Below are positions 19,144-61,580 of a DNA stretch of 64,000 bases, piece by piece (the first letter of the stretch is position 1; every line of letters begins with the position of its first letter). The stretch is from Podarcis cretensis (lineage: Eukaryota). The position numbers and the translations under genes were made by a program. The DNA lies in contig OX638154.1 of NCBI GenBank assembly GCA_951804945.1, positions 44,888,001-44,952,000 on the forward strand, in the 5' to 3' direction. The notes beneath the pieces are model-generated. The model was not told the origin of the DNA and did not search any database. It saw only the letters and a program-made list of their open reading frames with translations.

Positions 19144-19157
19144 ATGGGAGTCACCTG
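19144..19157 (+). CDS. MED20: Mediator subunit 20, first coding exon (14 nt, MGVT + TG)
   Basis: AGCATGG Kozak context; ATG GGA GTC ACC TG|GTACGG; joins exon 2 to give the known N-terminus MGVTCVSQMP. Confidence 0.9.
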
Positions 19158-20609
19158 GTACGGCATTTTGACTCGGGTATTGATTCATTTGCAAAATGCT
19201 GCCGCAGAGTTTGTAGCAGGTTGGTGGTGCTTGGGAGACGATCAGTAGCCGAAAAGACTTCGAAAAGGAGTTGGGGAAGGATAGGTTTTAGAACTGTAAC
19301 GTGTGAACACGCGGTCGGCGGGTTTTGTAGTAGAATTGGCGAGTCAAGATGCTCGTGAAGCAGCAGCAGCGGGAGGCAGGGTTTTTCAAATAGATGCAAC
19401 TGCCGTTGAGACCCCTTCAGCAGCGGGGAGGGTGTAAGTAGGTGACCTGGCTGTGTGAACGAATTGTGTTTCCCCTCAAACGGGGGGTTGTTGCAATAGC
19501 CGAGGCAGTTGCCTGATTATGAGAAAGGAGGAGATCGGTTTGTGACATTCTGGCTGAGAAGATGAAGGACGCAGAGAGTCAGGATCCTTGGGTGGATGCA
19601 TTTAACATTAGAGGCTGGATGCAGGCAAGCATGGGCTTGCTGGTACCACCACAGCTTCACGGCACCCCTGCCCTGGATTCAATAATACCCTGCCCATCTG
19701 GCTAGGTTGCCCCATTAGTAACACATCCTCTCAACCTAGGTGGAAACTCAAGGCAGGAGATAAAAAGGGAGAAGACAATGGACAATGAGGTCTAACAAAG
19801 GGTCATCTGGGATCTGGTCAATTATTGCTGTTGACTTACCTTTAGATATATAAATTACAGATTTTTAGTATTTTATTGCAAGTCCACCTTTCTTCCAAGG
19901 TGGCAAGTGTTGTTTGTTAAAGTGGTAAACACAGTTCTCTTTCCCCATTTTATTCCCATGAGAATCCAGAGAGTCCAGTATTATGGGCATAGCAATCCAA
20001 GCCTCCTTGAAGTTCTGGGGAAGGGCTGAGCTGAATCCGGAAACAGCCCCACTGATATCACATGACAGAATTGAGCGTGATTGCTGTGCTAGCTCCAGGC
20101 TGCCACAGCAAGTTGCCCCCTTCTTTCCCCCACCAGCTTGCGTGAGACAGGCACTGGTTGTGGTTTGGATTGCACCCTAATTAATTAAAAATAGTTAGCC
20201 TTTCCACACTAGTTTACAGGAGAATGATGTAAAAATATAGACAACAATAAAAAATATTTTTATACTACAATTAAAATATACCGGTACATATTGAAGTAGC
20301 TAGTGTCACAACTGGGGGCTGCTGGGTTGTTGTTGATCCATTACAGGGCCTTCTCAGTGGCAGCTCCTCACCTGTGAAATGCCCTCCCTCATTATTGATT
20401 TTTAGGAGGAATTTGAAAAGATTCCTCCTTACTGAGCCAATGGATGGCTGAAAGATACTGTTCCGGGAAATCCTGAAATCATTAGCTTAGACCAGTCTAC
20501 TGTTTTTAAACTATTTTTAGAATGCTTATAAACTAGAATGTTTTTGACTTTCAAAAAGTAATTCTAATGACAGTGTTTCTATGATACTGTTGCTGCACTG
20601 GGCTTCTTT

Positions 20610-20772
20610 TCATGTAAGGGCAGGCCCACTGGAGAGTTACATTGCCAGATGTGGCTGTAGAGACCGATAAGGGAGAGATATGTTTTATTGCAGGTGGGGC
20701 AGATGAAGGCATCTGGACTTGGCGCTAAAGGGGCACCATGGTGTTTCTTCTCTCTGCGTTCCTCCCAGTGGT
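20610..20772 (-). mobile_element. RTE-clade LINE 3' fragment
   Basis: Encodes FICPTCNKTYLSLIGLYSHIWQC, the C-terminal zinc-finger-like motif typical of RTE ORFs. Confidence 0.68.
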
Positions 20773-21808
20773 ACATAAAGGAAAAACAAACCAAATGCAA
20801 CACATCAGTCTCAAGAACTAGTAAATATAAACAACAAGAGCATCCTTATGCTATCTATGATGAAAAGCTCTTTCAAATAAAACCATTTTACATTAGCAAA
20901 AAAAGAGGTGTCAAGCAAATATTTCTTCTTCAACCTGGGCATATGCTCATGAGAAGGTCTTGTCTATGCTTCAAACTTGGGGCTCTCAGATAGGACCTTG
21001 GGTGATAATCTTAGTAAATGGGCAGGTTCAAAACAAAGAAAAAACACTGTGTACCTTATTTCTCTTCTAATCGTGTCTATGCTAAATGTATGTTTCTTCA
21101 CTAGTACACCATTACAAGTGTGTGTGTGTGTGTGTGTACATCTACCAACCTTGAAAACCAACTGAATAAATTATTGTCAATGTGTTTAGTTTTGCGCCTC
21201 ATTGCCAGTGATACCCAGGGCATGGCACATTCAAGGTGTGTAGGAAAACATCTGAAACAAGCAGATTTTGTCTGGTCTACCTCACTCTCAGTCTCATTCA
21301 AATGCTTTATACAGCCTTGCAAATAATATCATAAAAGTTACCAGGCCATAAATGTTTACTCACACACTTGCAGTACCTCAGTTACTTGCGGCATATCAAC
21401 ACAGCCAGTGGGAGAACAGCAACTCTCTTCTAGTTTCCAGTCTGTCTTCCTAGTTGTAATTATTGCAAGTAACTATTAATAAGTCTGTATTTGTAGTTAC
21501 AGAATGCTCTTGGTTATAAAGCAGATTCCACACAGTATGAGAATTTTTGTGGCTTGAGTTAACACTCCACACTCTTCCATGTCAGTTTAGCCTATATACA
21601 TAAGTCCCCATTTATTAATTATTTGAGGTTTTAGAAGTGGCTTGAGATAAATTGTGTGATATTCTACAAAAACCAGGTATGTCTCCCACACTATTGAAAT
21701 TTAGATGGTAAGCCTCTTGGGGCAGACAATTTTTTTGTTTTGTTTATTTACTTCTTTATCACTGCCCATGAAACATCCCAAAGCAGTTAGCAATTAAAAA
21801 TAGATAAA

Positions 21809-22035
21809 GAGTGGTACCTCAGGGTTAAGAACTTAATTCGTTCTTGAAGTCTGTTCTTAACCTGAAACTGTTCTTAACCTGAAGCACCACTTTAGCTAAT
21901 GGGGCCTCCTGCTGCTGCTGCGCCACCGCTGCACTATTTCTGTTCTTATTCTGAAGCAAAGTTCTTAACCCAAGGTACTATTTCTGAGTTAGCGGAGTCT
22001 GTAACCTGAAGCGTATGTAACCCGAGGTACCGCTG
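21809..22035. mobile_element. Tigger-like MITE, family B
   Basis: Near-identical to 60520-60745; TIR GTGGTACCTC.GGTTA. Confidence 0.85.
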
Positions 22036-22065
22036 TAATAACAACTTAAATTTGTTTTTACTACA

Positions 22066-22339
22066 GATAGGTAGCCGTGTTGGTCTGCCATAGTCAAAAC
22101 AAAATAAAAAAATTCATTCCAGTAGCACCTTAAAGACCAACTAAGTTAGTTCTTGGTATGAGCTTTCGTGTGCATGCACACTTCTTCAGATACACTTCAT
22201 GATACAGATACATGATACAGATCTTCAGATACACATGAAGTGTATCTGAAGAAGTGTGCATGCACACGAAAGCTCATACCAAGAACTAACTTAGTTGGTC
22301 TTTAAGGTGCTACTGGAATGAATTTTTTTATTTTGTTTT
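22066..22339. mobile_element. Penelope-like element remnant forming a perfect 106-bp inverted repeat
   Basis: Arms 22096-22201 and 22234-22339 are exact reverse complements; flanking direct repeat TTTGTTTTTACTACA (22051-22065 and 22332-22346); contains the CTGAAGA...GAAA motif typical of Penelope pseudo-LTRs. Confidence 0.8.
22242..22279 (+). ncRNA. Minimal type I hammerhead ribozyme motif (mirror copy on - strand at 22156-22193)
   Basis: GTAT-CTGAAGA-A-GTGTG-CATG-CACAC-GAAA-GC-TC-ATAC: 4-bp stem I, core CUGANGA, stem II, GAAA, palindromic AGCU in place of helix III, and a UC cleavage site. Confidence 0.7.
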
Positions 22340-22517
22340 TACTACAATCTAGTTTGCAAAGGGGTCATATGCACTGGTTGTGCTATGTTAATATTGACAA
22401 TAAAGATGTTACAAACATGGGCTTCCTTGGGTAGCATATAAAGAACTAAAGTACATAGTGGCTATGATTTTGATCAATGAGGGGTTTTTTTTGTTGAAAC
22501 CATTTCTCCTGTATTAG

Positions 22518-22672
22518 TGTTTCCCAGATGCCAGTGACGGAGGGGAAGAGTGTCCAGCAAACAGTTGAAATTTTAACAAGAAAGCTTGAGCTGCTTGGAG
22601 CAGAGAAACAGGGAACCTTTTGTGTAGACTGTGAAACGTACCACACTGCACCCTCCACAATGGGCAATCAAG
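22518..22672 (+). CDS. MED20: Mediator subunit 20, coding exon 2 (155 nt)
   Basis: TAG acceptor 22515-22517, G|GTAAG donor; [51 protein letters not shown]. Confidence 0.95.
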
Positions 22673-25135
22673 GTAAGCATTTAATTTCCTACAATTTAAA
22701 TCTACAGCAGGTCAAACCGCTACTGTTCATTCTCTTTATTTACCAAAAAGGATTTGAGCCCTTAACAAGGGTGTACCCATTTTAGTGTTTATGCAAGTAG
22801 CAACAACCCATCCTCAAGAATCTCCCTATTTCCCCCCCCCCCCCCCCAGGATGGAAAAGCTTAATTAATTCTCCTCTCACAAACCATGTTTCTGGTACAG
22901 TAGCCGTAACTGCATTTTCCTAAATAAATACATAAATCCAACACATCCAGAGGCTGGCTAACAGTCCTGGACTACACTGTAGGGTTGTCATACATTACTA
23001 TCCCCTCCCCCCCCCCACACACACAAAAAGAAAAAAAAGTACGGCAGCACTAGAGTACTTTGCAGGGCTGTAACTCATGCTTTCTCAAACACCATATCTA
23101 GCCCCTGTATCATCAATATACTAATGATTGATTTTATTTGTATTTGTATTAGCAGGGTATTTTTCTTAAATATACACATACTCAGAAAAATAGCAGTTTT
23201 GGCATGAAACTGAACCTGAGTCAGAAAGAACATGAACTCCTGTCTTTGCTGCTACCTTTTGCAACTATCACTTCTCTACTAAGGAATCTTGAGAACATCA
23301 CTTCCATATGAACTGGTTTATTCTCCATTGTAGGAATTTAGAGAGAGAAATTTAAAGTGGCCAAGGAAGTCCTAAAAACGGCTTCAGAATGAACCAGGAA
23401 GTCCTTTCTCTGGACAGTGAAGGAAGGACTTCCTGGGTCATTCTGAAATTGTTTGGGGGGTCTTCTCTTCAAGTTGTATGAATCTAAATTTCTCTCTAGC
23501 ACTCAGCGATCACAGTGGGTTCATATCTCACAAAGCAACGGGTTTTGAATGGCACCTATACATTTTGCTTCATAATCTTTGTTCTAAAAGGGATCGAGAC
23601 TTACTTAAAAAACTAAAATCTCATGTACCCACTGTCCACTGGCTTTGGGCTGGTATAGATGTACCTCTTTGCACACACACACCCTTTTCAGCATCCTTGC
23701 TTGTTCCATTGACTGCAGTGGAAACAAAGTTCAGTGGACCTTTGCATCATTAGTCAGGATCCAACCCACTAGTGCCAAGCACTTTTAGCATCATCAGATA
23801 AACCCTGCAAGTAAGTCTTTGAAAGAACAAAAACTTGTTGACAAATGAACTTTTCAGCAATGTTTGTGTCTTCCAAATGACATATGATTGATTCAAGGTT
23901 CCATTAATCTAAGCAAAACATATTTTACAAGCTATGTGATGCTTGTTAGACCTGAATTAAATTCATCTGGAAGATAATTAGCAGAGCTGAGGTTTTACAG
24001 AGGTAGCTGAAGCCAGACTTCCTGAAGGAACTTGGAAACGTTCAGTGTATTCCTCATCACCATGGAATATGGCTCAGGGAGTTTGCCGTTCTGGATTGCC
24101 AGCAAATGTTCTTTGCTACTTTCTCATAAGTTAATTATTTTTCACTCTAGATGTCAGCAGTGTACTTGGGCGCCCATCCTTTTGCCTCAGGTTCATAAAC
24201 ATGGCTGGATCCATGGTTGCTAGCATGGAGATACATATATTTCTGCAGTTCCTCAGTAGAGCTTGAATCAATGCCCTACTCCTGGCTTTCACTAAGCACA
24301 TTAAAACTGTGGAGGAAAAACAGCAAAACACCACTAGAGCTGTACTGTAAGCATATCTGGGAGTAAGCCCTATTAAACCCAGTGACAGTGAGCATCTGAA
24401 TTAAAAATAGATCGGATTAGGCTGCCTGTATAACTACTAGTTTAATCTGGAGCGAAACCCTGCAGTGATTTTTTAAAGAGGTATTTCTAAAGCCTCATTT
24501 AGATTACCAGTAGTTATAAAGATGCATCTTATTTGGAATCCTAAAACAGTTGCAGCACAGAGGACAGTTGCATCAGTTGCTAACACATCATTGGACATGC
24601 CTTTAAAAAAAAAACCCAGACCAACTTACATTACAGACATTAAAATCAGATATAAAAACAGAATAGAATGAAATCTAAAATCACATCCATTCCAAACATA
24701 TATAAAAGACAGGTCTAATACAACCCACACCACTCAAAACTGGAAAGAAATATGCCACAAATATACCCCACATCCTGCAAATTCAAATTATAGTCGAACC
24801 CCTCTTCTCTCCATCTTGCAAAAGAATGTTGTTGAGTGTACTTTTGTAAGGAGGTTAAGCGGATGTGTATCTGAAGTATATATCGGTACTCTAGAAAGAA
24901 CAAATGCTCATTTATCTCAAGATCGTGGTTCTTTAAGTAAAATAACATTGATTGCGTTTTGCTAGCCTGGAAAAGCCATTCAGCGACCAGTGCGACATAG
25001 AGATTCTGTAACAGCCCCAGTGGTTGTCAAGCAGCAAAGAGACAAAGGAAAATGTAACAGATGTTTCATTTTAAAGCATCTTAAGAGGGAAGGAATAACA
25101 ACCTTGAAGTGAAAGTAATGCTGCTCTTGTTTCAG

Positions 25136-60423: not shown

Positions 60424-61580
60424 TGGTGATGGTGAACATTTGAGAGACCGAGTGTCCAAACAGCAACCCAAAACCACTTCTTGATCACTAAGTGCCAATG
60501 CAGCAATTTAACTGGAATACAGTGGTACCTCGGGTTAAGTACTTAATTCATTCCGGAGGTCCGTTCTTAACCTGAAACTGTTCTTAACCTGAAGCACCAC
60601 TTTAGCTAATGAGGCCTCCTGCTGCCACTGCGCCACTGCCGCCCGATTTCTTTTCTCATCCTGAAGCAAAGTTCTTAACCCGAGGTACTATTTCTGGGTT
60701 AGCGGAGTCTGTAACCTGAAGCGTATGTAACCCGAGGTACCACTGTACTGAGGTTTCAGTTTAGAAAAAACAACTGCTACAACGCTAGGATAAGGATATG
60801 CCTTGCAGGTTTCCCGATGGCTTGTAAGATTGTGTGCAAATGTTGTGGAATTTTCTAAATGCATTTTTTCAATTTGGAAAATATTTCAGCTGTCCAAGGT
60901 CTCTTTCAAAAACCTGCAGTTTTCTCTGCAAGGTTTTGCTATCACAAAACATCCTTTCTGCCGTTTCCCCTACATCTTGTGGTTGTCTGTTCAGTAATTT
61001 TATCCTTATTTGGGAAATCATGAAAAAGGGAATTACTCCAAGACAACATAGCCGTTTTGATAAAGAGAGTTGCAAAAACTTAAGATACTGGGAATGGTAT
61101 TTCCCCTGTTTCCCTTTGAGAAACTCTTTTGTTTCAGTTTCACCAAGCTGGGCAATGCTTTTGTGGTTGGTGTCAAAGTGCCATCTGACACTTGATGTGT
61201 GACACACAACACTTTCATTGCACAGAAGACAGAACGCTTTCCTATTGCATTCAACGATCTTCCACTCTCTGTTCTTGCTTTTTTTCTTTCTTTCTTTTTT
61301 GCTGTATTCCTTTGTAGGTGTTCCTGACTTGGAGTCTACAAAAATTTTGAACATAGGAATATAAAGCATGCTGCATGAGAAAATCATAACAAAGATTACA
61401 ATTCTGAGCAAAATAATAAAGCGCCCAATACAAATCTATCCCTGTGTTTGCGTCACGATGGCGAGCCTCGATTCCTGGCTTTCTAGTAACGAACTCTGTG
61501 CTGGGGCAACTGCACATGTGCCCACAGAGAGAGTTCTGAGTGCCTCCTCTGGCACATATGCCATAGGTTCGCCACCACTG
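60424..61580 (-). mobile_element. Internally deleted hAT (Charlie/Buster-like) transposon with a transposase remnant
   Basis: Perfect 8-bp TSD GTGTAGTG (60416-60423 and 61581-61588); TIRs close to CAGTG(A/G)TGGCGAACCT; ORF 60869-61411 contains KAFCLLCNESVVCHTSSVRWHFDTNH, a BED-like zinc finger of hAT transposases. Confidence 0.85.
60520..60745. mobile_element. Tigger-like MITE, family B, nested in a hAT element
   Basis: Perfect TIR CAGTGGTACCTCGGGTTA with TA duplication. Confidence 0.9.

Follow-up and report, generated by a model that had tools for sequence, protein, structure and literature searches.

The locus examined here lies in the first intron of MED20 in Podarcis cretensis, within a window of 64,000 nucleotides (contig OX638154.1, forward strand) to which all coordinates below refer. 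It raises the question of whether a perfect 106-bp hairpin with a hammerhead ribozyme motif in each arm is a self-silencing device of the gene, as an earlier sequence-only reading had suggested, or what a mobile element leaves behind on insertion.

Anatomy of the insertion

The arms, 22096–22201 and 22234–22339, separated by a 32-nt loop, were checked and found, as first described, to be exact reverse complements; their pairing extends to 111 nt at 99% identity (hairpin fold −198.7 kcal/mol, z = −32 against 200 shuffles). The earlier span of 22051–22346 was kept, its boundaries being those of a 15-bp direct repeat which had gone unnamed; the insertion comprises 266 bp plus one duplicated 15-bp target (target-site duplication, TSD; Table 1). 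Exon 2 starts 243 nt past C22275, and its translation matches Med20, which bears out the placement in MED20 intron 1, about 240 nt before the acceptor.

Element positions were numbered from an A 30 nt below the TATA-like box in long copies. Both arms of the MED20 copy begin at +1. The long (left) arm ends at +131, or at +135 if 4 nt in common with the TSD are counted, exceeding the right arm by ~30 nt, to 22066, and the short arm reaches +101/+106 if TSD-shared letters are counted. The inner 5 bp of the 106-bp duplex are junction filler, not element, and this filler holds a third antisense fragment (22221–22233) able to pair with 22240–22252. At the presumed priming sites, the target ends match the RNA over 4 nt (tail end) and over 8 nt, or 12/13 (other end). 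Movement of the hairpin as a unit was rejected, as the junction of the MED20 copy occurs once in the genome (searched with a 26-nt piece).

Table 1. Features of the MED20 insertion and flanking exons, in window coordinates.
Feature	Position	Strand	Basis
MED20 first coding exon	19144..19157	+	pattern ATG...TG before GT; in-frame join to exon 2
MED20 second coding exon	22518..22672	+	translation; Pfam Med20 E 7.7e-12
TSD, left copy, 15 bp	22051..22065	+	direct repeat; single copy at empty site in X5, X7, X10, X11
TSD, right copy, 15 bp	22332..22346	+	direct repeat; empty-site comparison
Long arm, pLTR +1 to tail	22066..22196	-	100% to family copy L004 over +1..+135
Tail (30–40-nt type), long arm only	22066..22094	-	arm alignment; tail as in PMC8557442, PMC11167929
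Minimal hammerhead motif, antisense to MED20	22156..22193	-	reverse complement of 22242–22279
Junction filler, 42 nt, short arm-end pieces	22197..22238	.	sequence; fold of 22202–22346
Short arm, pLTR +1..+93, without tail	22239..22331	+	99% to L004 over +1..+106
Minimal hammerhead motif (type I), sense to MED20; cleavage predicted after C22275	22242..22279	+	sequence; fold; without Rfam match

Family identity

A 35-nt core of the element had 7,659 exact matches in the genome, against 0 for the control. Copies reaching further 5′ carry a GIY-YIG domain (L004), and a 773-aa frame in L096, without a 5′ start of its own, scored above the Pfam cut-off for both RVT_1 (44.3 bits) and GIY-YIG (24.9 bits). 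The pLTR with the hammerhead motif lies directly 3′ of the frame in L004, L096 and L100, and the 5′ end of L096 is a short inverted pLTR piece. Since the L096 frame lies upstream of the same pLTR, and the arms of the MED20 copy, itself without a coding part, are 99–100% identical to L004, the Penelope origin proposed earlier was upheld. Found together in the family were a reverse transcriptase (RT) frame with C-terminal GIY-YIG, a 3′ pLTR, an inverted copy with a tail at one end, and a TSD, which are the marks of endonuclease-bearing Penelope-like elements. A direct 5′ pLTR was seen in 0 of 5 long copies examined, and no copy was seen to read past the tail into the frame start.

A CX4CxxC linker occurs at residue 633 of L096, with a CxxC at 677 and two later histidines, by eye a CCHH arrangement. 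A CX2-5CxxC linker between RT and endonuclease is given in PMC8557442 as typical of the Neptune/Nematis clades and missing in Penelope/Poseidon. The protein sequence supports assignment to a Penelope-like retroelement with a Neptune/Nematis-type linker, and we infer Neptune rather than Nematis from the vertebrate host. One further copy, L006 (C2:120860267-120863397), has a partial endonuclease and lies ~500 bp from a GC-rich, gene-start-like stretch.

An inverted pLTR tailed at only one end belongs to the published signatures of Penelope; PMC8557442 and PMC3846280 describe an inverted, 5′-truncated copy with a 30–40-nt tail at one end. Pen2a_Av of Adineta vaga (PMC3846280) and the scheme in the Fig. 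2 legend of PMC8557442 resemble the family here in the head-to-head inverted 5′-truncated copy, one-end tail, TSD, and TATA-like box plus initiator-like site in the pLTR. Compared with Pen2a_Av units, the arms of the MED20 copy are cut to ~100–135 nt and have no coding sequence, the entire insert being the hairpin; minimal units of this kind occur in very large numbers in this genome. Poseidon_Ac (PAc) of Anolis carolinensis (PMC11167929) is alike in the hammerhead near the pLTR end, in the two 3′ ends bounding the tail, and in apparently using uncut RNA as template, but differs in the linker, which is absent from its clade; inverted insertions are not discussed in that paper.

Hairpins as the usual insertion product

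The claim that the arrangement is special was examined on the first 100 exact 35-nt matches on contig C1, within the first 9.7 Mb of one chromosome, a sample that favours young copies and reduces to 81 loci, two of them segmental duplicates. Among the 100 matches, 19 neighbouring pairs lay within 3 kb of each other, all 19 head to head. By alignment, 46 of the 81 loci were head-to-head pairs and 35 were scored as single, a few of the latter having very short or far-upstream partners. Genome-wide, at least 584 head-to-head sites have cores within 13 nt, a set that excludes the MED20 copy, with 56 nt between its cores. The hairpin is the default insertion product of the family, and the counts gave no support to the idea that the arrangement is special or was selected as self-silencing.

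A perfect hairpin is also ordinary, since the arms are identical over +8..+83 in 30 of 69 pairs with at least 60 nt of overlap, a set including loci chosen for likeness to the MED20 copy. One tail arm and one tail-less arm were combined in 44 of 46 pairs (binomial p 3e-11 against 0.5), and an end repeat of at least 8 nt was found in 86/94 pairs versus 5/94 controls (median 13). Two loci on C1, 44 kb apart (L045, 1390–1601, and L046, 1411–1615), share an odd junction in which stem II is skipped, with unrelated flanks and with tails on opposite arms, and could have arisen through conversion between neighbouring loci or from a shared hairpin source.

Arm ends and shared variants

Arm 3′ ends were counted over 80 loci, with one duplicate dropped and a reference that stops at +138; 62 of 119 lay at +87..+107, 50 at +132..+138, and none at +108..+124. 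Single copies of either kind, with or without tail, have their own TSD, and the tail-less ones (L106, L112, L128, L131) indicate that a tail-less end can start an insertion.

Arm 5′ ends lay at −3..+10 in 43 of 105 cases and had no foreign leader in common, a pattern suggesting an uncut RNA whose 5′ end lies here, with a transcription start at +1 as the preferred reading. The pile-up at +1 was also considered as a splice acceptor (pyrimidines followed by CAG), which was rejected because arms starting at 0..+8 have no common upstream exon. The ribozyme cut as template 5′ end was likewise rejected, with 1 of 90 pairs at +38, such arms being visible as partners only. A scan with bacterial promoter models, which are not applicable to a vertebrate, gave no match.

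Paired arms shared minor variants 25 times against 2.3 expected (maximum 10 in 2,000 permutations), and disagreed 22 times against 71 for shuffled partners, so that the arms of a pair come mostly from one source and sometimes perhaps from two; the 22 discordant calls, all at segregating sites, imply two templates, or later mutation, for some of the pairs.

Mechanism of insertion

In LINE-1 twin priming, cDNA synthesis is primed from both ends of the target, which leaves a 5′ inversion within one TSD; there the two parts cover mostly different RNA stretches and the second site is variable, whereas here the arms are copies of one and the same stretch, begun at two fixed positions. We favour, as somewhat the better bet, a form of twin priming in which both cut target strands prime reverse transcription, mostly on the same RNA, at two fixed sites; that this is done by one complex on uncut RNA, with start sites 35 nt apart and one per target strand, is thought probable to a similar modest degree. 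The element nuclease would cut the two target strands ~13 nt apart, one end would prime at the tail end (+136 to +138) and the other at the pLTR end (~+101), helped by short target/RNA matches (4 nt and 8 nt in the MED20 copy), both cDNAs would run to the RNA 5′ end near +1, 30 nt below the TATA-like box, and the two cDNA ends would be joined with templated filler. The priming steps are reconstructed here from genomic scars.

A biochemical counterpart is given in PMC11167929. In vitro, the anole Penelope protein cut both strands, extended them, and began copying at two positions on the RNA, one at each boundary of the tail; the ribozyme depended on the protein for cleavage, a step that insertion could do without. 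The start site reported there is equal on top and bottom strands, so the strict one-of-each pairing is not explained by that paper alone, and later insertion steps are left unvalidated there. For this existing in vitro system, the counts predict one strand starting at each of the two sites.

The main rival to twin priming, to which we give a limited chance of being right, is fold-back, in which the second arm results from self-priming and back-copying of the first cDNA or of an antisense RNA, as in the PMC3846280 model of self-priming on antisense RNA. Fold-back yields the same head-to-head shape, identical arms and variants common to both arms; junctions are often near-palindromic, and PMC3846280 interprets palindromes of this kind as self-priming events on antisense templates. 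However, the tail arm should then reach furthest 5′, whereas, of 44 pairs, it was the tail-less arm that extended further by 10 nt or more in 24, the tail arm in 12, and neither in 8, which argues against fold-back of tail-primed cDNA. Further points against it are the different subfamily variants on the two arms of some pairs (L101, L143) and the tail-less ends that also start single insertions with a TSD. These counts bear on fold-back of tail-primed cDNA, not on the antisense-RNA version.

The inverted ends and one-sided tail are attributed to self-priming in PMC3846280 and to nuclease resolution in PMC8557442. Twin priming, if true, would account for a long-known but unexplained feature, the inverted pLTR that has its tail at one end only, and the hundreds to thousands of 100-bp perfect hairpins in this genome would be a dense record of the reaction, as well as a large intronic pool of double-stranded RNA. 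A literature search joining Penelope-like elements and twin priming, mostly outside subscription journals, gave three matches that look unrelated by title.

Consequences for MED20

Four of four relatives compared at the right junction had an empty site (X5, X7, X10, X11; organisms B, C, D, E; three studies), with contigs in which the left flank runs directly into a single copy of the 15-bp repeat. Three organism A samples (X1, X2, X4; one study) carried the insertion, with a unique contig entering the element to 22310–22313. The presence/absence comparison proposed by the sequence-only reading was thereby made, and the empty site in relatives together with the insertion in organism A contigs indicates that the insertion is real and lineage-specific.

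Folding of the pre-mRNA gave pairing of the sense core with the antisense arm at a probability of at least 0.998 at 7 of 7 positions checked, in agreement with the earlier view that the antisense copy would lock the sense motif. The antisense arm would be made first, and the sense motif would zip into duplex while emerging. On this model, no activity of the ribozyme motif is expected in MED20 pre-mRNA. The insert makes no difference to the predicted pairing around the exon 2 acceptor; splicing of the intron is most likely normal, and neutrality of the insert for MED20 is assumed.

A long duplex of any kind may plausibly be edited by ADAR or diced, which would be passive and not a function of this copy. 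A rival reading has the hairpin selected or co-opted by MED20, as a self-silenced ribozyme or as an ADAR/Dicer substrate tuning the gene or silencing the family. The predicted 106-bp duplex speaks for such a role, as do the seemingly homozygous state of the insert in the three organism A samples and the siRNAs that Penelope inverted repeats yielded in transgenic Drosophila (PMC3681739); against it, the insert is missing in the four relatives, an equal shape occurs at 46 of 81 loci regardless of place, and the acceptor pairing is predicted to be unaltered, leaving co-option quite improbable. A literature search joining Penelope, A-to-I editing and hairpins, with subscription journals mostly beyond its reach, found none.

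The insert is likely transposon debris and not a control switch of MED20. The MED20 insertion is very probably a one-off, non-coding event of two short 3′-end Penelope-like copies, placed head to head within a 15-bp TSD and likely neutral. For MED20 it is a lineage-specific intronic insertion, probably without importance, and at most a presence/absence marker.

Three other observations were made around the insertion. It gives rise to a pyrimidine stretch that ends with CAG at 22066, and a donor-like GT lies at 22156; a cryptic exon of 89 nt is possible, which would shift the frame and have its donor hidden within the hairpin. The next MED20 intron contains a weaker inverted repeat (23376–23454, 34-nt arms, 85%). 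To the left of the insertion, 21810–22040 is a very high-copy ~230-bp repeat with inverted ends, presumably resembling a non-autonomous DNA transposon, with a second copy in the window at 60521–60747 (91%) and a contig depth ~10x that of the Penelope stub.

The hammerhead motif

On the + strand, the motif consists of GUAU (22242–22245), CUGAAGA (22246–22252), an extra A (22253), stem II (22254–22267), GAAA (22268–22271), GC, UC (C = 22275) and AUAC (22276–22279). All elements of a minimal hammerhead were found, namely the core CUGANGA...GAAA...UH, an extra base after 9, the G10.1–C11.1 pair, a palindromic 15.2–16.2 and a helix I of 4–5 bp, and the motif is without helix III. The minimal hammerhead anatomy reported earlier in each arm therefore stands, with core letters intact and matching the description in PMC4209133, where metazoan Penelope-like minimal type I hammerheads have the same core boxes, an extra base between 9 and 10.1, the G10.1–C11.1 pair, palindromic 15.2–16.2, a 4-bp helix I and no helix III. 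Minimal Penelope-like hammerheads were also treated by Lunse et al. 2017, as cited in the review PMC6765202. In Schistosoma, dual motifs occur on opposite strands, 100–700 bp apart (PMC4209133); helix II there is 7–8 bp, versus 5 bp with a 4-nt loop here, where it forms a perfect 14-nt palindrome.

The Rfam search that had been proposed as a check gave no match to hammerhead families at E up to 10 in the three regions scanned (20000–25000, 22205–22345 and 22236–22290). A microRNA precursor was rejected, all Rfam matches being below gathering score (MIR1222, 66.9 versus 90) and of the generic hairpin kind.

Cutting of MED20 pre-mRNA by the sense ribozyme at C22275 would be consistent with the intact core letters, with the folding of the isolated motif into stems I and II, and with an older family in the genome that retains the same core with another stem II (among 92 matches, control 2). 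It is nonetheless highly improbable, given a duplex of ~−199 kcal/mol versus ~−8 for the motif, and arm 5′ ends that show no accumulation at the cut site (+38). In PMC4209133, such motifs are inert as monomers and weak as dimers, and in PMC11167929 the anole motif was cleaved only with the element protein; the predicted duplex pairing and this lack of monomer cutting together make cutting of the pre-mRNA unlikely.

Stem II and its loop (22254–22267) form a perfect 14-nt palindrome through which two copies cofold; in the older family stem II is not a perfect palindrome. Cofolding of two motif copies gave a stem-II-swapped dimer, which is not the active form, and such folding cannot judge activity. 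The palindrome could aid pairing of two element RNAs. Five tandem ~49-nt copies (+7..+54), each with a whole hammerhead motif, precede an inverted arm in L010 (1632–1961), a layout in which dimers could form.

Assembly and age

Perfect inverted repeats are liable to mis-assembly and none of the contigs compared spans the entire insert, yet an assembly artefact has virtually no chance of being the explanation, as contigs from independent runs cover the loop (X2 record 14, 22172–22263) and the left junction (X4 record 21, 22012–22087) with 0 differences and also enter the right arm, and the TSD agrees with the empty site.

The flanks in the organism A samples are ~1% different from the window, so these samples were not the source of the window sequence. 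The earlier argument from zero mismatches to a very recent insertion proved weak, since 0 mismatches in 106 bound arm divergence only below ~2.8% identical arms are common among the pairs, and the insertion is present both in the window and in samples ~1% diverged in the flanks.
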